Of a DNA stretch of 64,000 nucleotides, positions 1 to 50,849 are shown piece by piece. The translations under genes and the position numbers were made by a program. This DNA comes from an uncultured Verrucomicrobiota bacterium (GTDB taxonomy: Bacteria; Verrucomicrobiota; Kiritimatiellia; CAIQIC01; Lenti-01), in NCBI GenBank assembly GCA_937860055.1, contig CALMBO010000014.1, positions 25,132-89,131 of the forward strand, read 5' to 3'. Positions within the stretch are counted from its first letter, which is position 1. The number at the start of each line of letters is the position of its first letter. The notes below the pieces were generated by a model. The model saw only the letters and a list, made by a program, of their open reading frames with translations. It had not been told where the DNA came from and did not search any database.

Positions 1-1
1 G

Positions 2-34248: not shown

Positions 34249-34814
34249 CCGCGAAGGCGCCCCGGGCCAGGAAGATCGTCGCGACGACCTCGCTGGCCGG
34301 CTGCTTTGGCTGCCACATGTCGCTGCTCGACATCGACGAGCGGATCCTCGACCTGATCGAGCTGGTGGAATTCAACAAGTCGCCGATCGACGACATCAAG
34401 ACGTTCACCAAGGAATGCGACATCGGGCTGATCGAGGGGGGGTGCTGCAATGACGAGAACGTGCACGTGCTGACGGAATTCCGCCGGCACTGCAAGACGC
34501 TGGTGGCGTTCGGGGAGTGCGCGTTGATGGGCGGGCTGCCGGCGCTGCGCAACTTCCTTCCGCTGAAGGAATGCCTGGAGGAGGCGTACTTGAACGGGCC
34601 GACGGTGGCCGGCGAAAACCCGGGGAGGATCATCCCGCACGATCCCGACATCCCGAAGATCCTGAACCGCGTCTATCCCTGCCACGAGGTGGTGAAGATC
34701 GACTACTTCCTGCCCGGTTGCCCGCCGAGCGCGGACCTCATCTGGGACGCGCTGGTCGCCCTGGTGACCGGCAAGGAGCTGGAACCGCAATACCGGACCT
34801 TCAAATTCGACTGA
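34245..34814 (+). CDS. hoxY: [NiFe] hydrogenase small subunit HoxY
   Basis: ATGA overlap with hoxU. Small-subunit proximal-cluster cysteines present (GCFGCHMS, GGCCND, GECA..GG, and PGCPP). Confidence 0.85.
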   Translation: MTAKAPRARKIVATTSLAGCFGCHMSLLDIDERILDLIELVEFNKSPIDDIKTFTKECDIGLIEGGCCNDENVHVLTEFRRHCKTLVAFGECALMGGLPALRNFLPLKECLEEAYLNGPTVAGENPGRIIPHDPDIPKILNRVYPCHEVVKIDYFLPGCPPSADLIWDALVALVTGKELEPQYRTFKFD

Positions 34815-34822
34815 GAGCCGCC

Positions 34823-36277
34823 ATGACCCGCAAAATCGTCATCGAACCCGTCACGCGCGTCGAAGGCCATGGCAAGGTCACGATCCACCTCGACGACGAA
34901 GGGAATGTCGCGCAGAGCCGGTTCCACATCGTGGAATTCCGCGGCTTCGAGCGGTTCGTGCAGGGGCGGCCGTACTGGGAGGCGCCGGTGCTGGTGCAGC
35001 GCCTGTGCGGCATTTGTCCGGTCAGCCACCATCTGGCCGGGGCGAAGGCCATGGACGTCGTGGTCGGCGCGGGGACGGGGGAGGGGCTGACGCCCACCGC
35101 CGAGAAGATCCGCCGCCTCATGCACTACGGACAGATCTTCCAGTCCCACTCGCTGCATTTCTTCCACCTGGCCTCGCCCGATCTCCTGTTCGGCTACGAC
35201 TCCCCGCCCGAGACGCGCAACGTGATCGGCATCGCCATGGCGAACCGCGAACTGGCGACGCAGGCGGTCCTGATGCGCAAATACGGGCAGGAGGTCATTG
35301 CCGCCACCGCCGGCAAGAAGATCCATGGCACGGGCGCGGTTCCCGGCGGCGTGAACAAGAGCCTGACCGCCGAGGAGCGCGACCGCCTGCTCAAGGGGGA
35401 CGGCGGGCCGCTCAACGCCGGCCAGATGGTCGCCTGGGCGCAAGGCGCGCTGGAGCTCTTCAAGGATTACTACCGGAAGCACAAGGACTTCATCGACCGA
35501 TTCTCCTCCTTTCCCTCGAACCACCTGAGTCTGGTGCGCAAGGACGGCGCGCTCGACCTCTACCACGGCGTCCTGCGCGCCGTGGACGCGAACGGAAAGC
35601 GGATCCTGAACGACGTGGACTACCAGGAATACCTCCAGCATCTGCGCGAGGAGGTGAAGTCCTGGAGCTACATGAAGTTCCCGTTCCTGAAGGCGCTGGG
35701 GAGGGAGAACGGCTGGTACCGCGTGGGTCCGCTTGCGCGGCTCAACACGGCCGACTTCATCCCGACCCCGCTGGCGCAGAAGGAATTCGAGGGCTACAAG
35801 GCTGCCACGGGCGGCAAGCCCAACAACATGTGCATGCACACGCACTGGGCCCGGCTGATCGAGATCCTCCATGCCGCCGAAAAGATGCGCGAGCTGCTGC
35901 AGGATCCGGACATCCTGGGCGGCGACCTTGTCGTGAAGGGCCGGCGGCAGCCCGAGGGTGTTGGCATCATCGAGGCTCCGCGCGGCACGCTGATCCACCA
36001 CTTCAGGGTCGGCGAGGACGACCTGATCCAGATGGCGAACCTGATCGTCTCCACCACGCACAACAACGAGCCGATGAACCGCGCCGTGAACGGCGTCGCC
36101 CGCTCGATGCTGACGAAGGCCAGGGAAATCACCGAAGGCATGCTCAACGCCGTCGAAGTGGCGATCCGGGCCTACGATCCGTGCCTGAGCTGCGCCACCC
36201 ATGCCTACGGACGGATGCCGCTGGAGGTTTTGCTCTATGACGACCGGGGCCAGCTCCTCGCGCGCCGGCGGAAATAG
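34823..36277 (+). CDS. hoxH: [NiFe] hydrogenase large subunit HoxH
   Basis: N-terminal RVEGHG and RLCGICPVSH (RxCGxC), and C-terminal DPCLSCATH (DPCxxCxxH) Ni-Fe ligands. Confidence 0.9.
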   Translation: MTRKIVIEPVTRVEGHGKVTIHLDDEGNVAQSRFHIVEFRGFERFVQGRPYWEAPVLVQRLCGICPVSHHLAGAKAMDVVVGAGTGEGLTPTAEKIRRLMHYGQIFQSHSLHFFHLASPDLLFGYDSPPETRNVIGIAMANRELATQAVLMRKYGQEVIAATAGKKIHGTGAVPGGVNKSLTAEERDRLLKGDGGPLNAGQMVAWAQGALELFKDYYRKHKDFIDRFSSFPSNHLSLVRKDGALDLYHGVLRAVDANGKRILNDVDYQEYLQHLREEVKSWSYMKFPFLKALGRENGWYRVGPLARLNTADFIPTPLAQKEFEGYKAATGGKPNNMCMHTHWARLIEILHAAEKMRELLQDPDILGGDLVVKGRRQPEGVGIIEAPRGTLIHHFRVGEDDLIQMANLIVSTTHNNEPMNRAVNGVARSMLTKAREITEGMLNAVEVAIRAYDPCLSCATHAYGRMPLEVLLYDDRGQLLARRRK

Positions 36278-36728
36278 CGCGCGTCCGGTCCTGGTCTACG
36301 GCTACGGGAATCCGGGCCGGCAGGACGACGGGCTGGGCATCGCCCTCGTCGACCGCCTCGAAAGCTGGGCGGCGGCGGAGAAGATCGGCGGCCTTGTTTT
36401 CGATTCCAACTACCAGCTCAACGCCGAGGACGCCCTTGCCGTCGCGGAGAGCCGGGCCGTCGTATTCGTGGATGCCACGGGGGAAGGGGAGGGGCCGTTT
36501 GAATTCCGCCGTCTGGCGCCGCAGGCCGCGATCGCCTTTTCCACCCATGCCATGGCGCCGGAAGGAGTGCTGGCGTTCGCGGCCGAGCTCTACGGGGCGA
36601 GGACGCCGGCGTGGATGATGGCCATCCGCGGGCATGCGTGGGAACCGAACGAGCCGCCGACCGCCGCCGCCCTTCTGAACCTGGCGGCCGCGCAGGAATT
36701 CCTCCAATCCTGGCTGCGCGGAAGGTGA
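36237..36728 (+). CDS. hoxW: hydrogenase maturation endopeptidase (HoxW/HycI family)
   Basis: VLVYGYGNPGRQDDGLGIALVDRL motif of hydrogenase C-terminal proteases. The start is uncertain and overlaps the 3' end of hoxH. Confidence 0.7.
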   Translation: MTTGASSSRAGGNSARPVLVYGYGNPGRQDDGLGIALVDRLESWAAAEKIGGLVFDSNYQLNAEDALAVAESRAVVFVDATGEGEGPFEFRRLAPQAAIAFSTHAMAPEGVLAFAAELYGARTPAWMMAIRGHAWEPNEPPTAAALLNLAAAQEFLQSWLRGR

Positions 36729-36734: not shown

Positions 36735-39152
36735 TCAGGTGTCGAGGATCTGCCTCACCTTGGTGGACAATTCCAGCATGGTGAAGGGCTTCTGGATGAA
36801 GTTCACCCCGTCGTCGAGAACGCCATGGCGGGCGATGATGTCGGCGGTATAGCCGGAGATGAAGATGCACTTGAGATGGGGGTGGGTGGCGAGGACGTGT
36901 TCGGCGAGTTCGCGGCCATTCATCTCGGGCATGATCACATCGACCATCAGCAGGTGGATGGCTTCGGAGTGCTTCTGGGCCAGCTGGATGGCTTCGCCCG
37001 GAGTGGCGGCATCGAGGACCCGGTAGCCGAGCTTTTCCAGCATGCTCTTGCCGAGGGCGAGGATGGCGGGTTCGTCTTCCACCAGCAGGATGGTTTCCCG
37101 GCCCTCGGCCCGCCGGCCGGCCAGGCCATTGGGTTTCGGAGCTTCGGCTTCGACCGCATGCCGGGGCAGATAGATCCGGAAGGTGGAGCCATGGCCGGGT
37201 TCGCTGTCCACGTCGATATAGCCGTTGTTCTGCTTGACGATGCCGTAGACGGTGGCGAGGCCCAGGCCGGTTCCCTTGCCCATGGCCTTGGTGGTGAAGA
37301 AGGGTTCGAACAGCTTCCCGAGGGTGGTCTTGTCCATGCCTTCGCCGGTGTCGCAGACCGAGAGCATGACGTAGTCGCCCGGTTGGGAGCCGTGATGCGC
37401 GGCGCAGAAAGCTTCGTCGAAGCTGATGTTGGCCGTTTCGATGGTGATTTTCCCGACGCCGTGGATGGCATCGCGGGCATTGACGCACAGGTTGGTGAGG
37501 ATCTGGTCGATCTGGGAGGGGTCCGCCTTCACCGGGTCGAGATCCAGTCCCGGCCGCCAGACGAGATCGATGTTCTCCCCGATGAGGCGGCGGAGCATGT
37601 GGAGCATGCCGTCCACGGTGGTGTTCAAGTCGAGCACACGGGCGAGGATGGTCTGCTTGCGGGCGAACGCCAGCAACTGGCGGGTCAGGTCCGCGGAGCG
37701 TTCGGCGGCCTTGCGGATTTCCTTGAGTTCGGCGTGGTGGGGCTGGCCCAGGCCGGTATCCTCCAGCAGCAGCTCCGTGTAGCCGAGGATGGCGCCCAGC
37801 ATGTTGTTGAAGTCGTGGGCGACTCCGCCTGCCAGCCGGCCGACCAGTTCCATCTTCTGGGCCTGCGCCAGCTGGGCCTGGAGGCGGTCCTGCTCCTCCT
37901 CGGCCCGCTTGAGGCTGGTGATGTCGGTGTGCAGGCCGACCAGCCCCAGGATGCGGCCTTCGGGATTCTGGATGGCGTAGGCCCTCAGGAGGATGTCCAG
38001 GATGGTCTTGTCCTTCTTGAACATTTTGACTTCGCCCTGCCAGTTTCTTCCCGCCTTGATCGCGGCGAAGACCTGGTGTCCGACTTCGGGGTCCACATAG
38101 GCGGTTTCGCAAGGGTTTTCGCCGACGTCGCCGAACAGGTTGCCGAAGGCCCGGTTCTGGTAGAAGTGCTTTCCGGCGGGTGTGGCCATCCCGATGGCGT
38201 CGGAGGAGTCCTCCACCAGTGCCTTGAACAGGTGCAGTTCCTCGTTCCGCGCCTTGAGCTCGCGCGTTCGGAGGGCCACCTGGCGTTTCAGCAGGAGGCT
38301 GCCGAGGAGGCTCAGCAGCAGGAGGGCGGCGAGCAGGGGGCCGGCAACCTTGAGCCAGGCGGGGAAAATGAATTCCAGCTCTTCGGAGGTCCATCGCTGC
38401 AGGGAAAGATAGTACACGGAAGACCGGTCGCGCTTCATCTCCGCCAGGTGCTGGTCGAGGGCGTTGAGGAGGAAGCGGCGGCCCGTCTTGGGCGTTGCGA
38501 AGTACAGGCGCGTAGGGCTGAAGATGATCGCGGTGTCCTCCAGCGGGCCGCCCCGGGGCTGGATGGCGCCATAGAAGCGGTTGGCGACCACCGCGTCCAC
38601 CTCGCCCTTGGTTACGGCGGCAAAGGCGGACGGATAGTCCGGCATCGGCACGACGACGACGTTCAGCTCGAAGCCGCTGGCCATGTTTTCGAAGACGGAC
38701 TGCTGGATCGAGCCTTCGAGCACGGCCAGCCGCTTGCCGTCCAGGTCCACCAGGGACCGGATGCCGCACCCGCGCCGCGCATAGATCTGGAACCAGTCCG
38801 ACAGCACCGGTTCGTGATGGAAGGCATAGCGGGTTTCGCGTTCGACCGTGAACGCGACATCGGGCATGAGATCGATTTCACCCTTGGCCAGCCGATCCAG
38901 GCATTCGACCCAGGTTCCCGGCACGTATTCGATCGCCCAGCTCTCCTTCGCCGCGATGTCCTCGATCAGGTCGACAAAGATGCCGAGAGGGCGCCCGGAT
39001 TCGGACCAGGCCACCTTGGGGATGTTCTGGTAGAGGCCCACGCGGATGGGGGTCTTGACGTTCTGGGCGTAGACGGAGAAACATGCCAACCCGGCCAGGA
39101 GGCTGAATCCGCCAATCGAAGCCCATGCGAACTTCTTCAAACGAGTGCCCAT
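36735..39152 (-). CDS. hybrid sensor histidine kinase: periplasmic solute-binding-protein-like domain, TM, PAS, HisKA, HATPase_c, C-terminal REC
   Basis: H-box [15 protein letters not shown] boxes ([15 protein letters not shown]). A receiver block (ILLVEDEP...[11 protein letters not shown]...K). The N-terminal SBP_bac_3-like region lies between a signal/TM segment and a second TM. Confidence 0.85.
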
Positions 39153-39355
39153 TTCATGGAAGAGGTTATCGCAAACCGATGGAGGAAACAAGTCGGGAGA
39201 AGACCTTGTTGCATTTTATCCGGAGGCCCTCCGCCGGGTGCTCTTTCCTCCCTTCTGGGGCGGGAAATGGGGCGTTGACGGAAACAGGGGGAGGGGAATA
39301 AAGTTCCCCACGGCGAATTATCATCTGCGAATCCCAACCGGAGGAAGAAGCGATC

Positions 39356-39805: not shown

Positions 39806-40384
39806 ATGTCGGCGGCGGGGGGAAGCGGGGAAACGGGAGACGGAGCGATGACGAAGACCTGCACGTGCGCCTGCGCGGAAGCCGCGCCGGACGAAAAAGA
39901 GCTGATGGGACGGCTGGAGGAAGTTCTGGCCGAGCAGAAAGACAAGCCGGGCGGATTGATTCCGGCGCTGCAGACGGCGCAGGCCATTTTTGGATATCTG
40001 CCGGAAAATGCGCTGCGGCGGGTGGCGCAGGCCTTCGACAAGTCGCACAGCGAGGTGGCGGGGGTGGTCTCGTTCTACTCGTTCTTCTCGACGGTGCCGC
40101 GCGGCAAGTACCTCGTCCGCGTCTGTCTGGGCACGGCATGCTATGTGCGCGGCGGCAACGAAGTGCTGCGGGCGATGAAGGACAAGCTGGGGATCGACGT
40201 GGGCGGGACGACGCCGGACCGCCAGTTTTCGCTGGAAGTGGGCCGTTGCTTCGGCGCCTGCGGCATGGCGCCGGTGCTGATGGTCAACGACGACCTGCAC
40301 CAGCGCGTCAAGCCGGCGAAGCTGGGCGAATTGCTGGAGAAATACCGCGCGCAGGCGGTGCCGGCGCAGGAGGCCAAGCCGTGA
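39806..40384 (+). CDS. hydC: NuoE-like thioredoxin-fold [2Fe-2S] subunit of [FeFe] hydrogenase (HydC/HndA-like)
   Basis: All four NuoE cysteines are present (CLGTACYVRG ... CFGACGMAP). The alternative start at 39848 has a better RBS. Confidence 0.8.
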   Translation: MSAAGGSGETGDGAMTKTCTCACAEAAPDEKELMGRLEEVLAEQKDKPGGLIPALQTAQAIFGYLPENALRRVAQAFDKSHSEVAGVVSFYSFFSTVPRGKYLVRVCLGTACYVRGGNEVLRAMKDKLGIDVGGTTPDRQFSLEVGRCFGACGMAPVLMVNDDLHQRVKPAKLGELLEKYRAQAVPAQEAKP

Positions 40385-43300
40385 CCAGGCATCTGAAGAA
40401 GATCGAATCGGGCGAAGCGCTGGCGGCCTGGCGGGACCAGCTGCGCAAGGCGGAAAAAACCGCGCAGGAAGTGCGGATCTGCATGGGCGGCAGCTGCCTG
40501 GCGTCGGGCGCGCCGGAGATTGCGGCGGCGTTCCGGAAGGAGCTGGCGGCGGCCGGGCTGGCGGAAACGGTCGCGGTGCGCGCGGCCGGCTGCATGGGGC
40601 CCTGCGTGCGCGGGCCGGTGCTGCGGCTCGGCGATGGAACCTTCTACCAGGGCGTGAAGCCCGAAGACGCGGCGGAAATCGTCCGCGAGCATCTGGCCGG
40701 CGGTCGCGTCGTGGACCGGCTGATCGCCCATGACGAGGCCGGCGGCAAGCCGCAGGCGACCGACGGCGAGATTCCCTTTTTCACGAAGCAGACGCAGATC
40801 GTGCTGCGCAACTGCGGGCACATCGATCCGGAACGGATCGAGGAGTACGTCGCGCGCGACGGCTACGCGGCGCTGGCGAAGGTGCTGGGCGGGCTGAAGC
40901 CCGAACAGGTGGTCGAGGAGATGAAGGGCTCCGGCCTGCGGGGGCGCGGCGGCGCCGGTTTCCCGACCTTCATGAAGTGGGAGTTCACCCGGCGGGCGCC
41001 GGGCGAGACGAAATACGTGCTGTGCAACGCCGATGAAGGCGATCCGGGCGCCTACATGGACCGCAGCGTGCTGGAGGGCGATCCGCACAGCGTGATCGAA
41101 GGCATGGCGATCGCGGCTTTCACCATCGGAGCGGTGCAGGGCTATGTCTACGTGCGCGCGGAGTATCCGCTGGCCGTGGCGCGGCTGAAGAAGGCGATCG
41201 AGCAGGCCCGCGCGTGCGGGTTCCTGGGCAAGCACGTGCTGGGAACGGATTTCCATTTCGATCTCGACATCCGGATGGGCTCCGGCGCGTTTGTCTGCGG
41301 CGAGGAGACGGCGCTGATCGCGTCCATCGAGGGATTGCGGGGCGAGCCGCGGCCGCGGCCGCCGTTTCCGGCGCAGAAGGGGCTGTGGGGCAAGCCGACG
41401 GTGCTCAACAACGTGGAAACCTACGCCAACGTGCCGGCGATCCTGCTGAACGGCGCGGCCTGGTATGCGAAGTGGGGAACCCCCAAGAGCAAGGGGACGA
41501 AAGTCTTCGCGCTGGCCGGCTGCGTGAAGAACACGGGGCTGGTGGAGGTGCCGGTGGGAACCTCGCTGGGCGAACTGATTTACGACATCGGCGGCGGCAT
41601 CCGGGGCGACAAGGCCTACAAGGCGGCGCAGATCGGCGGGCCGTCGGGCGGCTGCATTCCGAAGCAGAACCTGAACGTGCCGCTGGACTACGAAAGCCTG
41701 CAGGAGCTGGGCGCGATCATGGGTTCGGGCGGCCTGATCGTGATGGACGAAGACACCTGCATGGTGGACGTGGCGCGGTTCTTCATCGAGTTCGTGCAGG
41801 AGGAATCCTGCGGCAAGTGCGTGCCGTGCCGGGTGGGCACGAAGCGCATGGGCGAGATCCTGCAGCGCATCTGCGACGGCGACGGGGAGATGGCGGACAT
41901 CGAGCGCCTCGAGAAGCTGGGGGCGTTCATCAAGGAGTCGTCGCTGTGCGGGCTGGGGCAGACGGCGCCGAACCCGGTGCTGTCGACGATCCGGCATTTC
42001 CGCGAGGAATACGTGCAGCACATCCGCGACAAGCATTGCGCGGCGGGCGTGTGTCCGGCGCTGGTGCTGGCGCCGTGCCTGAGCGCATGCCCGGCGGGAG
42101 TGCAGGTGCCGGGATTCGTCTCGCTGGTGGGGGAGGGCCGCTACGCGGAGGCGCTGAAGCTGCACCGCGAGCGCAATCCGTTCGCGGCCATCTGCGCGCG
42201 GGTGTGCTTCCACACCTGCGAAGACCACTGCCGGCGCAGCTCGCTGGACGCGCCGGTCGCGATCCGCGGCATCAAGCGCTTCATGGTGGACCAGGAAGTG
42301 ACGATCGTGAAGCCCGCGGTGCTCGAGAACGCGGCCAACGCGGCGCGCAAGGTGGCGATCGTCGGCGCGGGTCCGGCGGGGCTGACCTGCGCGTATTTCC
42401 TGGCGCGGCTGGGATACAAGCCGGTCGTCTACGAGGCCGAGCCGCGGCCGGGCGGCATGCTGGTGCAGGCCATTCCGGCCTACCGGCTGCCCCGCGAGAC
42501 GCTGGCGCGCGAGATCCGCATGATCGAATCGCTGGGCGTCGAGATCAAGACCCTCCAGCGGCTCGGCAAGGATTTCACGCTGCCGAAGCTGCGGGAGGAC
42601 GGTTGCGAGGCCGTTTTCCTGGCGGTGGGCGCGCCCGAGGGGCTGGGACTGGAGCTGCCGGGCAGCGATGCCAAGGGCGTGGTGGATTCGATGGATTTCC
42701 TGCGGCAGTACAACATCCGCGGTTCGGCGCCGGTGGGCAAGGACGTCGTGGTGATCGGCGGCGGCAACGCGGCGATCGACGCGGCGCGGACGGCGCTGCG
42801 GCTGGGGGCGGAGCGCGTCACGGTGGTCTATCGCCGCACGCGCGAGCAGATGCCGGCCTATGCCGAGGAAATCGAGGAGGCGCAGCAGGAAGGCGTGCAC
42901 CTGCGGACGCTGTGCGCCCCCGAGAAATTCGAGGTTGAAGGCGGGAAGATCACCGGGCTGGTTTGCCGGCGGATGACGCTGGGCGATTTCGACCGCAGCG
43001 GGCGGCGCAAGGCGCAGGCCGGGGACGATTCGGCGATGGAGACGATCCCCTGCGACCAGGCGATCCTGGCGATCGGGCAGCGGCTCGACGCGAAGGCGGT
43101 GCTGGGCAAGGTCGAGGCGGCGGTGGCCGGCGGCTGGATCCAGGCCGATCCGACGACGGGCCGGACGGCGGTGCCGTGGCTGTTCGCGGGCGGCGACGCG
43201 GTCACGGGGCCGTCGTCGGTGGTGGAAGCCATCGCCGCGGGCGAACGCGCGGCGGTCGGCATCGATGCGATGCTGACGGGCGCGGAGCATGCCTTCTGGC

Positions 43301-43515
43301 GCGGCTATCCCGACGTGCCGACGGACTACGATCCGGAGGCGGATCCGGTGCCGTATCCGCGCGAGGATCCCAACCTGATCGAACTGGAGCGGCGGAAGAA
43401 CAACTTCGACGAGGTCGAGCAGCCGTGGAACGAAGCCACGGCGCGGCGGCAGGCGCGGCGGTGCCTGCGGTGCGACTACGGCAAGACCGGCAAGGTGAGG
43501 GGAGCGGCGACATGA
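40381..43515 (+). CDS. hydB: NuoF-like flavoprotein subunit (HydB) fused to a C-terminal GltD/NfnB-like FAD-NAD(P)H oxidoreductase domain
   Basis: GTG start overlaps the hydC stop. N-terminal thioredoxin-like domain. NuoF motifs GRGGAGFPTFMKW, NADEGDPGAYMDR and ESCGKCVPCR. Two extra [4Fe-4S] sites (CPALVLAPCLSACP, CARVCFHTCEDHC). Two Rossmann sites (VAIVGAGPAGL, VVVIGGGNAAID). Length about 1044 aa. Confidence 0.85.
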   Translation: MTRHLKKIESGEALAAWRDQLRKAEKTAQEVRICMGGSCLASGAPEIAAAFRKELAAAGLAETVAVRAAGCMGPCVRGPVLRLGDGTFYQGVKPEDAAEIVREHLAGGRVVDRLIAHDEAGGKPQATDGEIPFFTKQTQIVLRNCGHIDPERIEEYVARDGYAALAKVLGGLKPEQVVEEMKGSGLRGRGGAGFPTFMKWEFTRRAPGETKYVLCNADEGDPGAYMDRSVLEGDPHSVIEGMAIAAFTIGAVQGYVYVRAEYPLAVARLKKAIEQARACGFLGKHVLGTDFHFDLDIRMGSGAFVCGEETALIASIEGLRGEPRPRPPFPAQKGLWGKPTVLNNVETYANVPAILLNGAAWYAKWGTPKSKGTKVFALAGCVKNTGLVEVPVGTSLGELIYDIGGGIRGDKAYKAAQIGGPSGGCIPKQNLNVPLDYESLQELGAIMGSGGLIVMDEDTCMVDVARFFIEFVQEESCGKCVPCRVGTKRMGEILQRICDGDGEMADIERLEKLGAFIKESSLCGLGQTAPNPVLSTIRHFREEYVQHIRDKHCAAGVCPALVLAPCLSACPAGVQVPGFVSLVGEGRYAEALKLHRERNPFAAICARVCFHTCEDHCRRSSLDAPVAIRGIKRFMVDQEVTIVKPAVLENAANAARKVAIVGAGPAGLTCAYFLARLGYKPVVYEAEPRPGGMLVQAIPAYRLPRETLAREIRMIESLGVEIKTLQRLGKDFTLPKLREDGCEAVFLAVGAPEGLGLELPGSDAKGVVDSMDFLRQYNIRGSAPVGKDVVVIGGGNAAIDAARTALRLGAERVTVVYRRTREQMPAYAEEIEEAQQEGVHLRTLCAPEKFEVEGGKITGLVCRRMTLGDFDRSGRRKAQAGDDSAMETIPCDQAILAIGQRLDAKAVLGKVEAAVAGGWIQADPTTGRTAVPWLFAGGDAVTGPSSVVEAIAAGERAAVGIDAMLTGAEHAFWRGYPDVPTDYDPEADPVPYPREDPNLIELERRKNNFDEVEQPWNEATARRQARRCLRCDYGKTGKVRGAAT

Positions 43516-45287
43516 TCCACGTCACGATCAACGGCAAGGCGATCGAGGTTGCCGAAGGGTCCACGATCCTGCAGGCGGCGAAATCGGCGGGCATCCAGAT
43601 CCCGACGCTGTGCTTCCTGGAGAAGCGCGAACCCGTCGGCGCGTGCCGGGTGTGCCTGGTGGAGGTGGAGGGGGCGCGGACGCTGGTGGCGTCGTGCTCG
43701 ACGCCCTGCACGGAAGGCCAGGTGGTGCATGTCAACAGCCCCAAGGCGCGCGCGGCGCGCAAGCAGGTGGTCGAGCTGCTGCTGTCCGAGCACGACGGCG
43801 ACTGCCAGACCTGCGAGCGCAACGAGGACTGCGAGCTGCGGAAGCTGGCCAGCGACATGGGGATCCGGACGGTGACCTACGGCGGGAAGCGCGCGGCGGC
43901 GCATCTGGACGAGAGCACGCCGGGGCTGGTGCGCGACAATTCCAAGTGCATCAAATGCCGCCGGTGCGTAACGGTCTGCAACCAGGTGCAGGGCGTCGGC
44001 GCGCTGTTTCCTCAGGGCCGCGGCTTTTCCACGGTGATCGGGCCCGCGTTCGCGGCCGACCTGGCGGGCGTGACCTGCGTGCAGTGCGGCCAGTGCGCGG
44101 CGATCTGCCCGGTGGGGGCGATCACCGAGCGCAGCGCCATCGACGCCGTGTGGGCGGCGCTGGACGATCCGTCCAAGACGGTGGTGGTCCAGACCGCGCC
44201 GGCGATCCGCGCGGCGCTGGGCGAGGAATTCGGCTATCCGCCCGGCACGCGCGTGACGGGCAAGATGACGACGGCCCTGCGCCAGATGGGGTTCGACGCG
44301 GTGTTCGACACGAATTTCGCGGCCGACCTGACCATCATGGAGGAAGGCACGGAGCTGCTGACCCGCCTGAAACGGGCCCTGGTGGACAAGGACAAGACGG
44401 CGGCGCTGCCGATGTTCACGAGCTGCTCGCCGGGGTGGATCCAGTTTGCGGAGTACTACTATCCGAACTTCCTCGACCATCTGTCCACCTGCAAGTCGCC
44501 GCAGCAGATGTTCGGCGCGGTGGCCAAGACGTTCTACGCGCAGAAGATCGGCAAGAAGCCGGAAGACCTCGTGGTGGTGTCGGTGATGCCGTGCACGGCG
44601 AAGAAGTTCGAGGCGCAGCGGCCCGAGATGAACGCCAGCGGCGCACGCGACGTCGATCATGTCCTCACCACGCGCGAGCTGGCGCGGATGATCCGGCAGG
44701 CGAACCTGGCATTCACGGAGCTGCCGGACGGCGAGATGGACGCGCCGCTGGGTCTCTCCACGGGCGCGGCGGACATCTTCGCGAACACGGGCGGGGTGAT
44801 GGAAGCGGCGTTGCGCACGGCCTACGAGATCGTGACGGGGCGGGAGCTGCCGGTCGAGAACCTGCATGTGAAGCCCATCGAGGGGCTCGACGGCATCAAG
44901 GAGGCGTCGCTCAAGATCGAGCGGACGCAGCCGGCGTGGTCGTTCCTGGAAGGAGTCGAGCTGAAGGTGGCGGTGTCGCACGGGCTGGGCAACACGCGGA
45001 AACTGCTGGAAAAAATCCGGTCCGGCGATGCGAGCTACCATTTCATCGAAGTGATGACGTGTCCCGGCGGCTGCATCGGCGGCGGCGGTCAGCCGCGGTT
45101 CACGGACGACAGCGTCCGCCTGAAGCGCATCTCGGCGATTTATGCGGAGGACGAGTCCAAGAAGCTGCGCAAGTCGCACGACAATCCGGCGGTGCAGGAG
45201 CTCTACAGGGAATTCCTCGGCAAGCCGCTGGGGCACCGGTCGCACGAACTGCTGCACACGGGCTACCGCGCGAAAGAGCGCCGCTGA
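43512..45287 (+). CDS. hydA: [FeFe] hydrogenase catalytic subunit HydA (M3-type: [2Fe-2S], His-ligated [4Fe-4S], 2x[4Fe-4S] ferredoxin, H-domain)
   Basis: H-cluster motifs L2 MPCTAKKFE and L3 EVMTCPGGCIGGGGQP are canonical. L1 reads TSCSPGW instead of TSCCPxW. N-terminal ferredoxin clusters present. ATGA overlap with hydB. Confidence 0.9.
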   Translation: MIHVTINGKAIEVAEGSTILQAAKSAGIQIPTLCFLEKREPVGACRVCLVEVEGARTLVASCSTPCTEGQVVHVNSPKARAARKQVVELLLSEHDGDCQTCERNEDCELRKLASDMGIRTVTYGGKRAAAHLDESTPGLVRDNSKCIKCRRCVTVCNQVQGVGALFPQGRGFSTVIGPAFAADLAGVTCVQCGQCAAICPVGAITERSAIDAVWAALDDPSKTVVVQTAPAIRAALGEEFGYPPGTRVTGKMTTALRQMGFDAVFDTNFAADLTIMEEGTELLTRLKRALVDKDKTAALPMFTSCSPGWIQFAEYYYPNFLDHLSTCKSPQQMFGAVAKTFYAQKIGKKPEDLVVVSVMPCTAKKFEAQRPEMNASGARDVDHVLTTRELARMIRQANLAFTELPDGEMDAPLGLSTGAADIFANTGGVMEAALRTAYEIVTGRELPVENLHVKPIEGLDGIKEASLKIERTQPAWSFLEGVELKVAVSHGLGNTRKLLEKIRSGDASYHFIEVMTCPGGCIGGGGQPRFTDDSVRLKRISAIYAEDESKKLRKSHDNPAVQELYREFLGKPLGHRSHELLHTGYRAKERR

Positions 45288-45322: not shown

Positions 45323-45715
45323 TCAGGCGGGGGGAAGCTTCCCGATCCGGCGCAGCACGGTTTCGATCCGGTTCTTCAGCTCCAGGATATCCACCGGCTT
45401 CTCGATGTATTCCTCGCCATACTGGTAGTTGCACTCCTTCTTGGTGGATTCGTCCAGCAGGGCGGAGAGCATGACCACGGGAATGTCGGAGAGGGGATAC
45501 TTCCCCTTCAGGGCGCGGAGGACCTCGATGCCGTCCATCTTGGGCATCCGGATGTCCAGCAGGATGAGGTCCGGCTCCCAGCGCCTGGCCATCTGGATGC
45601 CCTCCTTGCCGGAAGTCGAAAACGCCACCTCGAAGTCGCCGACGATTTCCAATCCCTGCTTCACGGCCTGGCAGAGCCGTTCCTCGTCGTCGATCAACAG
45701 TATCTTGAATTTCAT
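45323..45715 (-). CDS. single-domain response regulator (CheY-like receiver)
   Basis: ILLIDDEE..D...LILLDIRMP..DG...K blocks of a REC domain. Start overlaps the stop of the upstream kinase. Confidence 0.75.
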   Translation of the reverse strand: MKFKILLIDDEERLCQAVKQGLEIVGDFEVAFSTSGKEGIQMARRWEPDLILLDIRMPKMDGIEVLRALKGKYPLSDIPVVMLSALLDESTKKECNYQYGEEYIEKPVDILELKNRIETVLRRIGKLPPA

Positions 45716-48621
45716 GTTCCATCTCCTGTCGGGGTTTTGGGATGGCCGCTCCGGGCCATGGGGAGCCAAAGCGTGAAGGTGGTTCCGGCACGGGGTTTGC
45801 TTTCAAAGCCGATTTCGCCTTCGTGGGCCTTGAGGATGGCGTAGCAGACGGGCAGTCCGAGCCCGGATCCGTCCTCCTTGGTGGTGAAGAACGGATCAAA
45901 GATCGATTTCTGGGCCTCTTCCGAGATGCCGATGCCGGTATCCCGGAAGTCCAATCTCAACCGTCCATTCACCAGGGCGGTGGAGACGGAAAGGGTGCCG
46001 CCGTCCGGCATGGCCTCTCTCGCGTTATTGATCAGGTTCATGAACACTTCCTGCATCTGCGGTTCATCGATGGAGACGGGGGGGAGGTGTTCCGCATAGG
46101 CCCGCTGGATCTCGACATGGCTCCACTTCAGCTGCGGTTCCATCATGCCCACGACCATCTCGAGGCTGGCATTGATGTCGACTTCCCGTGTCTGGCCTTT
46201 GCTGGGCGCGGAGAAGCGCAGCAGCCGCTTCAGGATCGCCTTGGCCCGCTGGCATTCGTCGCCGATGATGCGGAGCTTGTCGCCGGCTTCCCTCGCCCCG
46301 ATCTCCGGCATCAAGGCCAGCTGGGCGTTGCAGGAGATGATCATCAGCGGATTGCTGATTTCGTGGGCCACCTCCGAGATGAGTTTGCCCAGGGAGGCCA
46401 GCTTCTCGGAGCGCATGAGGGCGGTCTGGGCGCGTTTCAGTTCCGCGATATGCTGTTCCAGCTCCTGCCGGATCTGGTTGTTCTCGGCCAGCAGATGGGC
46501 GAGGGCCTCGCGGGATTCCAGCGTTTCCCGCAGGCGGGCCTTCAGGTTTTCCGACTGTTCGGCCAGCTGGCGGCCGGTTTCCTTGCGCATGCGGATGTTC
46601 ACCAGCAGTTCGGCGAAGACCTTCAGCAGGTTCTGGTCCTGTTCGGAATAGCCGCGGCGCTGGCGGACGGAATCGAAACCGACAAAGCCGATGCAGCGAT
46701 TCGCCTCCATGAGCGGGACGGCGACGAGGCTTTGGATCGACTGCCGTTCGAGCTCCTCCCGCTGCGGGCCGGGGGGCAGGGCCTGGACATCCGGCACATG
46801 GACGGGCCGGCCGGCTCGATGGGCCTCCAGCCAGTCCGGCATGAGCGACAGGGGGATTTCCTGCAGGCGGTCGATATGGGGTTCGATGCCGGGGGCGCAC
46901 CATTCGTGGATGTTGGTGCAGATCTGCCGCGGAAAATCGTAGACGAACACGTAGGCCCGGTCCGCTTCGCTGAATTCCGCCAGGTTCCGGAGGGAATCCG
47001 AGACGGCCTCGTCGACGGTTTCGAGGGGACGGTTGACGAAGGACGAGGAAATCTGGATGAGCAGCTGCTGGGCGCGGGACTGCCGGCCCAGCTCCTGGCG
47101 GGCGTGTTTTTCGTCCTCGAGGATGCCCAGGAGCGCCTGCCGGGCCCGGTTGCTCTCCTCCAGCAGGGCATGCACCCGGTCCTCGGCACGCTTCCGCCCG
47201 GTGATGTCGGTGGAAATGGTGGCGAACCGGCCGCCTCCCAGGGCGACGGCCGAGATGAAGAAATACCTGCCCATGGGGGCGTAGAAGGTCTCGAAATGGC
47301 AGGGGGTTCCGGAAACCGCCGTCTGGGCATATACATCAAGATAGGGTGCGCTGGCGGTGCCATACACCTCGGTGGCGCATTTGCCGAGGAGATCTTCCTT
47401 TTTTTTTCCAATCAGGCGGGCAAACGCGGCGTTGCATTCGATCAGCCGGTAGTCGACCGCCTTCCTTTTCCCGTCGAAGACCAGTTCGTGGATCACGGCG
47501 ATCTCGCCCATGGAATCGAAGAGGGCGCCCAGCTTCGCCTCGCTCGCTCGCCGGGCGTCTTCGGCCTGTTTGCGCTTGGTGATGTCGGTGCTGGTTCCCC
47601 GGTACCCGCAGAGGGAGCCGTCGCGGTTCTGCTGGGGGATGGCGTTGGTGGAGAGCCAGACCATGCGGCCATCCCGGGTCTGCGCCTGGCTTTCGAAATC
47701 CACGAACGGCTCCTGACTTCCGAACGCACGGAGGATGTCCTGCCGGAACGCCTCGCGTTCCGCCGCGGGGTGCAGATCATGGAGGTGCATCTGTCCCACG
47801 AGTTCATCGGGGCGGTAGCCGAGGACGGTTTCGGAGACGGGGCTGGCAAGGGTGAAGAGGCCCTGGGCATCCACTTCCCAGACGAAGGTCCGGCTTTGGG
47901 CGGCGAGCTGGGCGAAGCGCCCCTCGCTTTCCTCCAGTTCCGCCTGCCGCATGCGGATGTCGCGGCGGTTCTGGAGGAGGAAGAAGGCGAGCAGGCCCAG
48001 CAGGACGGCAATGGCCGCCAGGGCCGACGGGAGGGAGGCGAGGAAGGCGACCGTTTGTTTCCAGTCCCGGGCGTCGATATCCATGCCCAGGAGGACGGGG
48101 TGGCCTCCCTCCTCCGGCCTGAACAGGGGCACCAGGGCGCTGATCCATGTGCCCCAGCGGTCCTGCTGCGGCCCCTCCACGATTTCCTGTCCTGTTTCAA
48201 GCGCGGCGAGCAGCAGATCCGTTGCTTCGCCATACACCTGGCCGGGAGGGGAATAGTCTTCGGAGGATTCCGGCTCGCTGTCCACGAGAAACACCGCGGA
48301 GCCGTCGGGTTTCCGGGTTATGAGATAGACGAAACGGCATTGGGGATTGGCCGACCGGATGGCGATGAGGCGGTCCTTGAGCCTCCGGTAGGCGGGACGG
48401 TCGAGGTCGGTTCCGGAGGCGGAAAGCATGGAGGCTTCTTCTCTGCCGAGCGCCTGCGCGACCATGCGCACCTGCCGGAGAAAATCGGCGCGGTGCTGGC
48501 GGTCGGCGTAGCGGCCGGCGTAGACCGTGGCGGCGGCGATCAGCGCCAGGGAAGCCAGAACAGGCAGGAGGCGGAGGGCGGCGGACGCCTGGCGGATTCC
48601 GCTGGCGGGGGGGAGAGTCAT
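45712..48621 (-). CDS. sensor histidine kinase with N-terminal periplasmic sensor, TM, multiple PAS and GAF domains, HisKA and HATPase_c
   Basis: H-box EVAHEISNPL. N/G boxes NLINNAREAM and GSGLGL. PAS repeats. 969 aa. Translationally coupled to the upstream PAS protein and the downstream REC. Confidence 0.8.
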   Translation of the reverse strand: MTLPPASGIRQASAALRLLPVLASLALIAAATVYAGRYADRQHRADFLRQVRMVAQALGREEASMLSASGTDLDRPAYRRLKDRLIAIRSANPQCRFVYLITRKPDGSAVFLVDSEPESSEDYSPPGQVYGEATDLLLAALETGQEIVEGPQQDRWGTWISALVPLFRPEEGGHPVLLGMDIDARDWKQTVAFLASLPSALAAIAVLLGLLAFFLLQNRRDIRMRQAELEESEGRFAQLAAQSRTFVWEVDAQGLFTLASPVSETVLGYRPDELVGQMHLHDLHPAAEREAFRQDILRAFGSQEPFVDFESQAQTRDGRMVWLSTNAIPQQNRDGSLCGYRGTSTDITKRKQAEDARRASEAKLGALFDSMGEIAVIHELVFDGKRKAVDYRLIECNAAFARLIGKKKEDLLGKCATEVYGTASAPYLDVYAQTAVSGTPCHFETFYAPMGRYFFISAVALGGGRFATISTDITGRKRAEDRVHALLEESNRARQALLGILEDEKHARQELGRQSRAQQLLIQISSSFVNRPLETVDEAVSDSLRNLAEFSEADRAYVFVYDFPRQICTNIHEWCAPGIEPHIDRLQEIPLSLMPDWLEAHRAGRPVHVPDVQALPPGPQREELERQSIQSLVAVPLMEANRCIGFVGFDSVRQRRGYSEQDQNLLKVFAELLVNIRMRKETGRQLAEQSENLKARLRETLESREALAHLLAENNQIRQELEQHIAELKRAQTALMRSEKLASLGKLISEVAHEISNPLMIISCNAQLALMPEIGAREAGDKLRIIGDECQRAKAILKRLLRFSAPSKGQTREVDINASLEMVVGMMEPQLKWSHVEIQRAYAEHLPPVSIDEPQMQEVFMNLINNAREAMPDGGTLSVSTALVNGRLRLDFRDTGIGISEEAQKSIFDPFFTTKEDGSGLGLPVCYAILKAHEGEIGFESKPRAGTTFTLWLPMARSGHPKTPTGDGT

Positions 48622-50849
48622 CAGGCCTTCTCCCGGTCGCCGGTGTTTTCCACCGCGACATAGGGCGGGGGTTGGCCGAGGCGGATTGCCAGGGCATTGA
48701 CCTCGCGCTTCAATTCCGCGATCCGGTCTTCGCGGCCAAGGGTCACGGAGTGCCAGCGGCGGAGCTCATCCATCTGCCGGGCCATTTCCTCCTCGGTCTG
48801 CCTGCGTTCGGTGACGTCGCGGACGCTGACGATGACCCCTTTCACGGCGGGTTCCGCGAGGAAGCTCTGCCCGACGATTTCCACGGGCACCCATCCCCGG
48901 GTCTTGTGGATGTGGCGGCATTGGACGCGATGGGTCTTTTCCGGATGGGCGATGGTTTCGCGGAAGGCGAGGAGGGTCCGTTCCATGTCCTCGGGGTGGA
49001 TGATTTCGCCGATGGATTTGCCGGTCAGTTCCGCGGATGAGAACCCGCTGACGGATTCCTCGGCGGGGCTGACGTATTTGACGATCCCGTCGACGTCGAT
49101 GACGGCGATGATGTCGGAGGAATTCTTGACCAGCAGGCGGAAGCGCTCCTCGCTTTCGCGCCGGGATTCCTCGGCGCGCTTCTGCTCGGAGATGTCGAGC
49201 AGGACGCCGTTCCAGAGGATGCGGCCATCCGGGAGGCGCCGGGGGTTGGCGGAGCCGCGCAGCCATTTGGTCTTGCCGTCCGGCGTGGCGATGCGGAATT
49301 CGAGGCTCCAGCGCTCCATCTGGTTGGCGGCGGCATCGATGGAGTGCTCGAACAGGGCGCGGTCGCCGAAATGCATGTGGTTGAAAAGGAGTCCGGCGAA
49401 GTCCAGGTTGGCGACGGGGCGTTCGAAGAGGGCTTCGCAGCCGGAGCTCATGTAGGGGACTTCGAGCGAGCCGGTGCGGCCGGTCCGGAGCTGGTAGATG
49501 ACGCCGGGGATGTTGGAGGCGACGTCGCGGAACTGCTCGGTGCTGGCGCGCAGCTTTTCCTCGGCCTGCTTGCGTTCGGTGATGTCGCCGAGGCTGGAGA
49601 GGATGCAGGTTTCGGAGCCGAGCTGGATCAGCTGGGCGGAGAAGAGACCGGTGAGGATCCGGCCGTTCCTGGCCCGGAACCTCAATTCCATGCCGGCCAC
49701 GGGCCGCCCTTCGTTGAGGGTTCCGACCACCTGCTGCCGGTCCTCCTCGCGGAGCCACAGGCCGAGGCCGAGGGTCGTGTTGGCGAGGGCCTCCTGCCGG
49801 GAGAACCCCGTGATGGAGGTGAATGCGTCGTTGACATCGATGAAGCGGCCGTCCGCCGCCCGGGTGATGAGGATGGCGTAGGGGGAGGTTTGGAAGGCCT
49901 TTTCGAATTTCTCCTCGCTGCGGCGCAGCGCCTCTTCGGCCTGCCGGCGGTCGGAGATGTCGATGGTGTAGCCGGCCAGGAGGGTTGTTCCCTGCCGGAC
50001 GATCGGGAACTTGATCGTGACGTAGTAGTGGCCATCCAGTTCCTCGTCCTGCTTCAGCACCTCGCCCTTGGACACGACGGCCCAGTCGTCGGCGGAGATC
50101 TTGGCGGCGAATTCGGGGGGGAACAGCTCCTCCATGGTCTTGCCCCGCATTTCCGATCCGGGGATGCCGACCATGTCCTTGAAATTGTCGCTGGCCATCA
50201 GGACCCGGCTTTCCGTGGCCGAGACTTCCTTGATGAAGGTATAGATGGGGGAATGGTGCATGAACAGGGAGAACAGGGCATGGCTTTCCTTCAAGGCCTG
50301 TTCAATCTGCTTGCGCCGGGTGACATCGCGGACATAGCCGCCCACGCCCGTGCGTCCGCCGGGGAGGGGGACGGGGAACTTGAGGGTCTGGTAGATTTTT
50401 CCGCCGACGGCCTCTTCGGTGGAGAGGCCTGTTCCCTGGCGAAGGACTTCCTGGTCGCTGTCCCGGCAACGCGCAGCATTTTCCTGCGGCATGAGGTCGA
50501 AATCCGTGCGGCCGATCACGTCCGCCTCGGGCCGGCCCAGGAAGGCGTTGTTGGCGCGGTTGCTGATGAGGTAGCGGAAGGATTCGTCCTTCAGGAACAC
50601 CAGGTCGGTGGAGGCGTCGATGAAGGTCCTGTAGCGCATCTCGCTTGCGCGGAGGTCGGTGTTGGTCTGGACCAATTCCTCGGAGCTCAGTTCCAGGGAG
50701 CGTTCCAGGAGGTTGCGGTCCTTGTCGAATTCGCGATAGGCGTTGTCGACGGCCTGCAGGAAAGGCATCCAGTCGGCCGGCAGGTCCTCGGGGCCTTTCC
50801 GGAAGCGCTTCAACTGCCGGACAAGCATGCTATGCAGGGATTCCGGCAT
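48621..50849 (-). CDS. multi-PAS-domain protein without recognisable output domain
   Basis: At least four PAS/PAC-like repeats separated by RKQAEE-type linkers. No kinase or GGDEF/EAL motifs. Shares one nucleotide with the start of the downstream kinase. Confidence 0.7.
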   Translation of the reverse strand: MPESLHSMLVRQLKRFRKGPEDLPADWMPFLQAVDNAYREFDKDRNLLERSLELSSEELVQTNTDLRASEMRYRTFIDASTDLVFLKDESFRYLISNRANNAFLGRPEADVIGRTDFDLMPQENAARCRDSDQEVLRQGTGLSTEEAVGGKIYQTLKFPVPLPGGRTGVGGYVRDVTRRKQIEQALKESHALFSLFMHHSPIYTFIKEVSATESRVLMASDNFKDMVGIPGSEMRGKTMEELFPPEFAAKISADDWAVVSKGEVLKQDEELDGHYYVTIKFPIVRQGTTLLAGYTIDISDRRQAEEALRRSEEKFEKAFQTSPYAILITRAADGRFIDVNDAFTSITGFSRQEALANTTLGLGLWLREEDRQQVVGTLNEGRPVAGMELRFRARNGRILTGLFSAQLIQLGSETCILSSLGDITERKQAEEKLRASTEQFRDVASNIPGVIYQLRTGRTGSLEVPYMSSGCEALFERPVANLDFAGLLFNHMHFGDRALFEHSIDAAANQMERWSLEFRIATPDGKTKWLRGSANPRRLPDGRILWNGVLLDISEQKRAEESRRESEERFRLLVKNSSDIIAVIDVDGIVKYVSPAEESVSGFSSAELTGKSIGEIIHPEDMERTLLAFRETIAHPEKTHRVQCRHIHKTRGWVPVEIVGQSFLAEPAVKGVIVSVRDVTERRQTEEEMARQMDELRRWHSVTLGREDRIAELKREVNALAIRLGQPPPYVAVENTGDREKA

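Follow-up and report, generated by a model that had tools for sequence, protein, structure and literature searches.

The hydC-hydB-hydA operon

This study concerns an [FeFe]-hydrogenase operon in a 64,000-nucleotide stretch of DNA from an uncultured bacterium of the Kiritimatiellia (Verrucomicrobiota); the whole stretch is further referred to as the window. The genes of the operon follow the order hydC-hydB-hydA, and the middle one encodes a fusion protein that starts as a HydB subunit and continues as a GltD-like module. Positions are given in window coordinates, and residue numbers refer to the fusion protein unless another protein is named. The cofactors are flavin mononucleotide (FMN), flavin adenine dinucleotide (FAD), and nicotinamide adenine dinucleotide and its phosphate, NAD(H) and NADP(H). 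The genes and the domains of the fusion protein are as follows.

39806 to 40384, forward strand: hydC, NuoE-like subunit of 192 amino acids with the [2Fe-2S] cluster C1 (Pfam 2Fe-2S_thioredx, 2e-47)
40381 to 43515, forward strand: hydB::gltD fusion gene, 1044 amino acids (open reading frame without internal stop, GTG start)
40444 to 40725, forward strand: N-terminal thioredoxin-like [2Fe-2S] domain ("B5") with Cys 34, 39, 71 and 75 (Pfam 2Fe-2S_thioredx, residues 22–103)
40822 to 42024, forward strand: NuoF-type core with the FMN/NADH site, the SLBB domain and the four-helix bundle with the [4Fe-4S] cluster "B1" (Cys 477, 480, 483 and 523; nuoF_fam)
42019 to 42066, forward strand: hinge at the zinc ("B2") site, H547, C553 and C558, together with C460 and C498 (alignment to 7t2r_B)
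42070 to 42300, forward strand: Fe-S domain of the GltD/NfnL-like module with Cys 566, 570, 605, 609, 613 and 617 and Lys 632 (Pfam Fer4_20)
42343 to 43284, forward strand: FAD and NADPH Rossmann domains with VAIVGAGPAGL, VVVIGGGNAAID and YRRT at residues 817–820 (Pfam Pyr_redox_2)
43387 to 43485, forward strand: C-terminal tail "ERRKNNFDEVEQPW...RRCLRCD", which supplies Cys 1028 and 1031 to the Fe-S domain (StnC/NfnA alignment)
43512 to 45287, forward strand: hydA, catalytic subunit of the [FeFe] hydrogenase, 591 amino acids (Pfam matches including Fe_hyd_lg_C, 1e-96)

The original prediction, made from the letters of the window, described a single reading frame for 1044 amino acids at 40381–43515 of the forward strand; this was borne out, the frame being translated without a stop. 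The GTG start of hydB::gltD overlaps the stop of hydC, and the stop of hydB::gltD overlaps the hydA ATG at 43512; hence the three genes are translationally coupled. More than 120 full-length homologues of the fusion protein were found with 70–93% identity and lengths of 1039–1064 amino acids, with a single one of 1027. The identical 1044-residue protein is recorded on nine contigs in NCBI/ENA. Its cluster mates are labelled as Kiritimatiellia or Lentisphaerae and annotated merely as "NuoF" or "FAD-dependent oxidoreductase". A frameshift or an assembly fusion was rejected given these full-length homologues, the occurrence of the fusion in 69 species genomes, and the invariance of the junction and the ligands.

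The operon contains neither a ferredoxin gene nor a gene for a PyrK-like protein (the NfnS/NfnA partner), and no GltB-like gene lies near it. Scanning the operon for promoter and terminator consensus sequences yielded nothing above chance. The best solved relatives of HydC are C subunits of bifurcating enzymes (7t2r_C, 8a6t_C and 7q4v_C). In HydA, the Pfam domains Fer2_4, NADH-G_4Fe-4S_3, Fer4, Fe_hyd_lg_C and Fe_hyd_SSU were identified, and the protein scores 633 bits against HydA1 of A. woodii (7q4v_A) and 611 bits against that of T. kivui. It has N-terminal NuoG-like cluster domains and no GltD-like insert. Its H-cluster domain carries three Cys motifs, TSCSPGW, MPCTAKKFE and EVMTCPGGCIGGGGQP. 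Within residues ~304–331 of HydA, the first of them stands in place of TSCCPxW, with a compensating Cys in "STCKSP"; the same pair is seen in the active HydA1 of A. woodii and is not seen in HydA1 of T. kivui or in CpI. A defective H-cluster was rejected as a reading of TSCSPGW, since active A. woodii HydA1 carries the identical variant.

The HydB-type half of the fusion protein

Residues 1–562 constitute a HydB/BfuB core of the bifurcating type. The thioredoxin-like domain proposed earlier was recovered as Pfam 2Fe-2S_thioredx (residues 22–103). The NuoF module was recovered likewise, by Complex1_51K (182–352, 2e-45), SLBB (376–424) and NADH_4Fe-4S (463–547, 4e-36) in Pfam and by nuoF_fam (148–548, 1e-149) in NCBIfam. 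All five motifs quoted in the original prediction were located, three of them in this half: GRGGAGFPTFMKW at residues 188–200, NADEGDPGAYMDR at 216–228 and ESCGKCVPCR at 475–484. The NuoF-type domains by which the BfuB family is recognised (IPR011538, IPR019554 and IPR019575, that is, the FMN/NADH domain, SLBB and the NuoF [4Fe-4S] domain; PMC9304861) are all present in the fusion protein.

Over their whole length, residues 30–562 can be aligned to the B subunit of each solved bifurcating enzyme of the Bfu family, with scores of 612–786 bits. The highest scores were obtained with NiFe-HydB of Acetomicrobium mobile (786 bits) and HydB of A. woodii (748 bits), followed by NfnB of C. saccharolyticus, StnB, and HydB of T. 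kivui and T. maritima (612–687 bits). With Nqo1 of respiratory complex I the same residues reach 406 bits, and with beta subunits of NAD-dependent formate dehydrogenases 382–420 bits.

The metal ligands listed for A. mobile (C438, C476, H525, C531 and C536; PMC9304861) map onto C460, C498, H547, C553 and C558 of the fusion protein. This B2 site is now taken as a zinc site (PMC11829005), and its conserved His is reported to be absent from non-bifurcating homologues. Losey et al. proposed three sequence criteria for bifurcating beta subunits, namely A/E-x-M, a Phe near FMN, and GGPSG. All three signatures are present in the fusion protein (GDPGAYMDR, GSGAFVCGEE and GGPSG). In the set of 70 aligned fused sequences, formed by 69 loci described below and the window protein, they are kept in 66, 67 and 68 sequences, respectively. 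The HoxF-like protein encoded in the same window served as an internal control: it has T-x-K and Tyr, the non-bifurcating pattern, yet GGPSG is present.

The GltD-like module

A domain search of the C-terminal half had been named beforehand as the check that might refute a GltD-type module, and such a module was found in both Pfam and NCBIfam. The Pfam matches are Fer4_20 (residues 557–639, 5e-21) and Pyr_redox_2 (657–954, 3e-32), and those of NCBIfam are PRK12771 "NAD(P)-binding protein" (518–1031, 4e-143) and a GltD-like small subunit (537–1033, 2e-122). The two remaining quoted motifs lie here, VAIVGAGPAGL at residues 658–668 and VVVIGGGNAAID at 789–800. The two [4Fe-4S] sites of the module are formed by C566, C570, C605, C609, C613, C617, C1028 and C1031, plus K632.

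Judging by alignment scores, the module is most closely related to the GltD-like insert of StnC and to NfnA, a subunit of NfnABC. Residues 564–1032 score 383 bits against NfnA of C. saccharolyticus (9bov_A, residues 102–567) and 334 bits against StnC (8oh5_C, residues 102–566), vs 262 bits against NfnB and 186 bits against real GltD. Moreover, the module is circularly permuted in the same way as StnC and NfnA: it starts with PCxxxCP and ends with "NNFDEV...RRCLRC". Its tail aligns to residues ~540–567 of StnC/NfnA and to residues 14–43 of NfnB, the equivalent stretch being N-terminal in NfnB and GltD. K632 corresponds to K170 of StnC, an unusual Lys ligand of the FAD-proximal cluster, where NfnB has Glu. 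The IPxYRLP arginine is present as well. The YRR(T) motif, common to the NADPH-dependent StnC, NfnA and NfnL, is kept in the fusion protein and in 59 of the 61 fused loci with sequence extending that far. Cys 605 is present as in NfnL and GltD, and is replaced by Ile in StnC and in NfnA of C. saccharolyticus.

The earlier label of a GltD/NfnB-like module thus holds in so far as this is an FAD/NAD(P)H module of the GltD/NfnL type; its nearest relative is the non-bifurcating Stn/NfnABC insert and not NfnB or GltD. A bifurcating FAD of the NfnSL type is not favoured, given Lys instead of the Glu ligand, the permuted order, the absence of an NfnS partner, and a score below that for Stn/NfnABC. As to placement within the Stn/NfnABC group, the module here is not inserted in an A (NuoG/Fdh-like) subunit and forms the C-terminal half of the B subunit.

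Replacement of the ferredoxin domain at the zinc-site hinge

All alignments of the fusion protein to solved HydB/BfuB chains end at residue 562. In unfused HydBs from other genomes the zinc-site sequence "C-P-A-G-V-C-x-x-L" is followed by a CxxCxxCxxxCP...CxxCxxCxxxC ferredoxin domain, after which the protein ends. Fused proteins switch to "P-C-x-x-x-C-P-A-G" seven residues past the last Cys of the zinc site. In the fusion protein we found no CxxCxxCxxxCP pair and no Pfam Fer4 match that would correspond to the canonical C-terminal 2x[4Fe-4S] domain (B3/B4), and the dedicated ferredoxin-binding domain is absent from every fused member compared. According to the published model, the low-potential arm leads from C1 via B3/B4 to ferredoxin and resides on the mobile C-terminal domain of BfuB (PMC11829005). 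Hence, the ferredoxin-docking C-terminal domain of HydB is replaced, at the same zinc-site hinge, by a 480-residue module with FAD, NADPH and 2x[4Fe-4S]. We regard this architecture, a HydB core with a replacement NADPH/FAD module, as near certain.

The original prediction also contained two extra ferredoxin-type Cys clusters. These do not exist as such: C553 and C558 belong to the zinc site, and the other cysteines are those of the module's own two [4Fe-4S] sites. An ordinary HydB extended by an additional ferredoxin domain and GltD was therefore rejected, since HydB's ferredoxin domain is missing and the cysteines are accounted for by the zinc site and by the Fe-S domain of GltD. What stands is the fusion itself and the identity of its first half as a genuine HydB in a HydC-HydB-HydA operon; what has to be corrected is that this HydB lacks its own ferredoxin domain.

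BfuB as defined in PMC9304861 requires the ferredoxin-type domain IPR017896, and neither GltD nor fusions are mentioned there. Since IPR017896 is absent, the fused branch may have been left out of that survey. Lacking one BfuB-defining feature, the B3/B4 domain, the fused subunit is a variant of the HydABC/Bfu kind and no plain member of it.

A Foldseek search against the PDB yielded no chain spanning both halves; the best query-normalised template modelling score was 0.52, for HydB-type chains, and NfnA and StnC chains matched the GltD-like half. The AlphaFold model of the fusion protein has a mean predicted local distance difference test (pLDDT) score of 79.5 and is confident over the NuoF core and the Rossmann domains.

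Conservation, distribution and genomic context

Apart from one substitution at C34 (kept in 120 of 121), none of the 22 metal ligands varies among the window protein and the 120 cluster representatives closest to it. The invariant positions include Cys 39, 71 and 75, the B1 cysteines 477, 480, 483 and 523, the zinc-site residues, K632, and Cys 1028 and 1031. In a search of 1.84 billion cluster representatives, the fused architecture was recovered in about a dozen clusters at 50% identity; the same search also yields proteins of ~650 amino acids matching residues 425–1031 alone.

The distribution was scanned using the junction region (residues 440–760) as a query against one genome per species, and the best 80 loci were examined. 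In 69 of these the fused subunit has both halves, so that it occurs in at least 69 species genomes. The bacterial carriers are labelled as Verrucomicrobiota, Lentisphaerae, Hydrogenedentota, Acidobacteriota, Thermoleophilia, Spirochaetes, Atribacteria, Chloroflexota, Desulfobacterota, Armatimonadota, Balneolales, Gemmatimonadaceae, Cloacimonadota and Clostridia, and the archaeal ones as Thermoplasmatales and Theionarchaea. A cultured carrier among the Clostridia is Pelotomaculum terephthalicicum JT (locus L030). The fused subunit is spread over more than 12 phyla; labels of metagenome-assembled genomes may be imperfect, but the breadth is clear.

The hydC gene precedes the fused gene at nearly all loci. 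Downstream partners are more diverse: a true HydA at 32 of the 69 loci, a [NiFe] hydrogenase of the HydABCSL type at about 11 (L043, L050, L057 and L058 among the metagenome-assembled genomes of Desulfobacterota), a full-length formate-dehydrogenase A subunit at about eight (e.g. L045, L048 and L053), and a small A subunit with a GltB-like protein at four; at 14 loci the contig ends before the downstream partner. The ligands, the bifurcating signatures and YRR are kept across these contexts, and so is the Lys, for which some NiFe-linked members have His. Because the same fused B subunit stands in [NiFe]-hydrogenase operons and beside formate-dehydrogenase A subunits, the fused core is modular and extends beyond [FeFe] hydrogenases.

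In a crude neighbor-joining tree of the NuoF core, built from a biased sample, unfused HydBs nest among the fused ones. A single ancient fusion clade is not supported by this tree, and, given the sampling, no conclusion was drawn from it. Two distant NuoF-GltD fusions (37–41% identity) have no N-terminal [2Fe-2S] domain. One (P0128, locus L003) lies beside a response regulator and a histidine kinase, and the other (P0164, locus L004, Desulfobaccales) beside a molybdopterin oxidoreductase and a 4Fe-4S protein. Some distant fusions have Glu for Lys at position 632.

Comparison with known enzymes

The solved HydABC enzymes (A. woodii 7q4v/8a5e, T. kivui 8a6t and T. maritima 7p5h; group A3) have the HydC/HydB/HydA gene set in common with the window operon. 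They also share with the fusion protein the N-terminal [2Fe-2S] domain, the FMN site, B1, the zinc site and the bifurcating signatures, residues 30–562 being collinear. They differ in that HydB carries the B3/B4 ferredoxin domain where the fusion protein has the 480-residue FAD/NADPH module. Among solved enzymes, the [NiFe] HydABCSL of A. mobile (7t2r) scores highest with the NuoF core (786 bits) as well as with HydC (145 bits); its partner is a [NiFe] hydrogenase and its HydB has the B3/B4 domain, whereas the partner in the window operon is an [FeFe] hydrogenase and no such domain is present.

In the Nfn-Bfu transhydrogenases StnABC/NfnABC (S. ovata 8oh5, C. saccharolyticus 9bov and T. sibiricus 9n5u) a BfuBC-type core is combined with the same kind of module, as here, and the permutation, the Lys ligand and the IPxYRLP arginine are shared. 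However, those enzymes carry the module within the A subunit and have a B subunit with its ferredoxin domain intact, while here the module is on B in place of that domain. Their A subunit is an inactive Fdh-like scaffold, in contrast to the active-type hydrogenase of the window operon.

The beta subunits of ~650 amino acids (FdhB/SfrB type, PRK12771) share with the fusion protein the junction between the NuoF four-helix bundle and GltD, the Lys and the RR motif. Neither the FMN/NADH domain nor the N-terminal [2Fe-2S] domain is present in them, hence they have a single nucleotide site, and most are devoid of the zinc-site ligands. Relatives of this length in our set (P0220, P0237, P0241, P0253, P0257, P0258 and P0268) bear the source names "formate dehydrogenase beta subunit" or "GltD-like oxidoreductase"; judging by these names, they would be proteins of the SfrB and Moorella FdhB kind.

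A similar architecture was described once, in Vallitalea guaymasensis L81 (peg.3894-3896), as an "enlarged beta-subunit with a GltD binding domain" in place of the two-[4Fe-4S] domain (PMC6163223, 2018). The authors suggested a second NAD(P)H site and a link to glutamate metabolism in what was a genome-annotation remark; we liken that subunit to the fusion protein by the published description alone. The architecture is thus already visible in databases and noted once in print; the ferredoxin-independent chemistry with two nucleotides that it implies is a prediction.

HydDB assigns an [FeFe] hydrogenase to group A2 if a neighbour has GltD "but not NuoF", and to group A3 if any NuoF is present. 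Group A2 was rejected for the window enzyme, as the protein beside HydA has both GltD and NuoF. The HydDB rule would therefore call it an ordinary ferredoxin/NAD bifurcating hydrogenase of group A3.

Proposed reaction and alternatives

By the domains assigned above, the fused complex has an FMN/NADH site and an FAD/NADPH-type site, and no recognisable ferredoxin site. The two pyridine-nucleotide sites postulated earlier correspond to the FMN/NADH core and to the GltD/NfnL-type module with YRR. The hydrogenase probably links H2 to both NADH and NADPH without ferredoxin. Among the options considered originally, substitution of NADPH for ferredoxin gains support, as the module replaces the ferredoxin-docking 2x[4Fe-4S] domain at the same hinge.

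In the reaction that we propose, electrons would pass reversibly between NADPH, FAD, the proximal [4Fe-4S] cluster and the distal [4Fe-4S] cluster, the latter occupying the usual place of B3 beside the hinge. From the distal cluster they would move to or from the mobile [2Fe-2S] cluster of HydC (C1) and the B1-FMN-C1 centre. NADH would exchange hydride with FMN, and the cluster chain of HydA would connect B1 with the H-cluster. The net reversible reaction would be NADH + NADPH + 2 H+ <-> 2 H2 + NAD+ + NADP+.

We consider it fairly likely that NADP(H) serves as a substrate in place of ferredoxin. This is suggested because the module hangs on the same hinge; because both ends of the module adjoin this hinge, as would its distal cluster if the StnC insert is a guide; because all features specific to the bifurcating core are retained under strong constraint; and because the partners (H2 and formate) stand for the low-potential reactions that canonical Bfu enzymes drive with NADH and ferredoxin. 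A strict energetic coupling of the reactions of NADH and NADPH is a more tentative proposal, to which we would give somewhat less than even weight. For the explanation taken as a whole, with NADP(H) replacing ferredoxin in a HydABC enzyme that interconverts NADH plus NADPH and 2 H2, we put the chances at even.

Cellular potentials are about −280 mV for NADH and about −370 to −380 mV for NADPH (PMC9304861, Table 1; PMC6288185). Our Nernst estimate of the equilibrium H2 pressure is ~100–150 Pa for NADH plus NADPH, ~3 Pa for NADH alone and ~0.15 bar for NADH plus ferredoxin. Given these equilibria, the reaction with NADH and NADPH would be feasible both ways in H2-scavenged habitats. The enzyme would enable a fermenter to vent its NADH and NADPH pools as H2 at moderate H2 pressure, or an H2 oxidiser to make NADH and NADPH jointly, in both cases without ferredoxin.

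Several observations weigh against this explanation. The AlphaFold model has pLDDT below 50 exactly at residues 563–639 and 988–1044, with no geometry readable there. The specificity for NADP or NAD at each site is read from motifs alone. Ferredoxin could dock elsewhere, for instance on HydA or, as in NfnSL, at the module's distal cluster. A full-text literature search, with subscription-only literature outside it, found no enzymology or structure of a fused subunit. Finally, the FAD of the Stn type, to which the module belongs, was shown to be non-bifurcating and to carry mid-potential electrons, and the ~650-residue relatives have mostly lost the zinc-site ligands but retain the cysteines of B1, the clusters of GltD, the Lys and the RR motif. 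In these relatives the module must feed B1 directly, and the same geometry here would place NADPH on the mid-potential path.

The last two observations also speak for an uncoupled hydrogenase with dual entry, in which the FAD module would feed B1 directly, NADPH and NADH would act independently on one wire to the H-cluster, no bifurcation would occur, and HydC, B5 and the zinc site would be structural relics. Non-bifurcating NADH-dependent HydAB(C) enzymes do exist (PMC7311640). However, the NuoF core has all three bifurcating signatures and the zinc-site His, kept across phyla and partner types, and dual entry leaves the conservation of B5 and HydC unexplained. Besides, with an ungated wire between the nucleotide sites, a short circuit of the NADPH and NADH pools would arise, and if NADPH alone sufficed a short beta subunit would do, as in NADP-dependent formate dehydrogenase. 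On balance we hold this alternative to be possible and rather unlikely.

The other two alternatives are less likely than dual entry. Retention of ferredoxin as a substrate would make the complex a four-substrate combination of HydABC and an Nfn-like enzyme that equilibrates H2, NAD(H), NADP(H) and ferredoxin, the latter docking at one of the two places named above. For NfnSL, ferredoxin binding has been proposed close to the distal cluster in the homologous subunit (PMC5861303), the extra Cys 605 of the NfnL/GltD type is kept here and missing from StnC and NfnA of C. saccharolyticus, and fermenters of the clade were described to use Rnf and ferredoxin (PMC5148204). Yet no member retains the dedicated ferredoxin-binding domain, the ligand of the proximal cluster is Lys, as in Stn, and not the Glu associated with the low-potential cluster of NfnL, and the operon has no ferredoxin gene. 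We consider such an enzyme improbable.

The weakest alternative, that the GltD part is a true small subunit of glutamate synthase passing electrons from H2 or NADH to a GltB-type subunit for ammonia assimilation, is very improbable: it can draw on the loci with a Glu_synthase-domain protein listed below and on the HydDB label of group A2, "glutamate synthase-linked", but no GltB-like gene lies near the window operon, the module is closer to NfnA and StnC (383 and 334 bits) than to real GltD (186 bits), and the downstream gene here is a complete HydA.

At L026, L059, L060 and L063, four loci of which two are archaeal, genes for a small 2Fe-2S/4Fe-4S protein and a Glu_synthase-domain protein lie downstream of the fused gene; a glutamate dehydrogenase gene is found in addition at L059. 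These loci may encode a NuoF-containing complex resembling glutamate synthase.

A broader form of the preferred explanation would treat the fused subunit as an unrecognised branch of the Bfu family, whose low-potential arm ends at an FAD/NADP+ site. Such a branch would perform ferredoxin-independent coupled confurcation of NADH and NADPH, or co-reduction of NAD+ and NADP+ driven by H2 or formate, its core being reused with hydrogenases of both the [FeFe] and the [NiFe] kind and with formate dehydrogenases across more than 12 phyla, archaea among them. We regard it as a doubtful generalisation at present. If it were true, it would contradict the stated "absolute conservation" of BfuBC cofactors, and many group A3 "ferredoxin/NAD bifurcating" hydrogenases would be misassigned.

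Genome-based models of fermentation, syntrophy and H2 cycling in gut and sediment assume that NuoF-linked [FeFe] hydrogenases need reduced ferredoxin and NADH. Since the fused subfamily lacks the ferredoxin domain, has an NADPH-type site and occurs in at least 69 species genomes, its H2 threshold, redox partners and role in NADPH balancing would depart from the assumptions of annotation pipelines. The fusion also provides a natural experiment on the disputed mechanism of Bfu enzymes: the mobile arm is exchanged for a hydride-accepting flavin module, while B1-FMN-C1, the zinc hinge and B5 are kept. If coupling survives this exchange, it constrains the gating of the low-potential electron; if coupling is lost, it shows which parts are dispensable. 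Two cultured carriers, P. terephthalicicum JT and, according to the literature, V. guaymasensis L81, make the proposal directly testable.

Other features of the window

An operon for a Hox-type NAD-linked [NiFe] hydrogenase lies directly upstream of the fused operon, and sensory genes surround both hydrogenase operons. These and the other features identified in the window are the following.

31262 to 36728: Hox-type operon, encoding a CBS protein, HoxF-like and HoxU-like proteins, the small and large subunits, and a 175-residue open reading frame without a Pfam match
31653 to 33539: HoxF-like NuoE+NuoF fusion within this operon, 8 kb upstream of the fusion gene
33553 to 34248: HoxU-like protein within the same operon
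28469 to 31090, 36735 to 39191, 45712 to 50849 and 52124 to 54781, reverse strand: sensory genes
5495 to 6400: phage GP88-like protein
17552 to 19225: large serine recombinase
19318 to 20313: ComM/Mg-chelatase-like open reading frame, apparently without its N-terminus

A NiFe hydrogenase is encoded upstream of the fused operon in a Lentisphaeraceae relative (L007) as well. The products of the sensory genes comprise two histidine kinases (a hybrid one with a periplasmic binding domain and one of the PAS/GAF type), a multi-PAS protein, and two Ser/Thr kinases, of which one carries a Cache-like sensor domain. No tRNA or tmRNA genes were detected in the whole 64-kb window.

The first ~18 kb of the window (region 1–19225) have a G+C content of 49–55%, vs 63–70% elsewhere. 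This low-GC stretch ends at the serine recombinase gene, which is immediately followed by the ComM-like reading frame, and contains, besides the GP88-like gene, a gene for a radical-SAM protein and a weak match to a D12 methyltransferase. Probably the stretch is a mobile element or prophage that integrated into a comM-like gene. The cumulative GC skew climbs near-monotonically over the window (1–64000).

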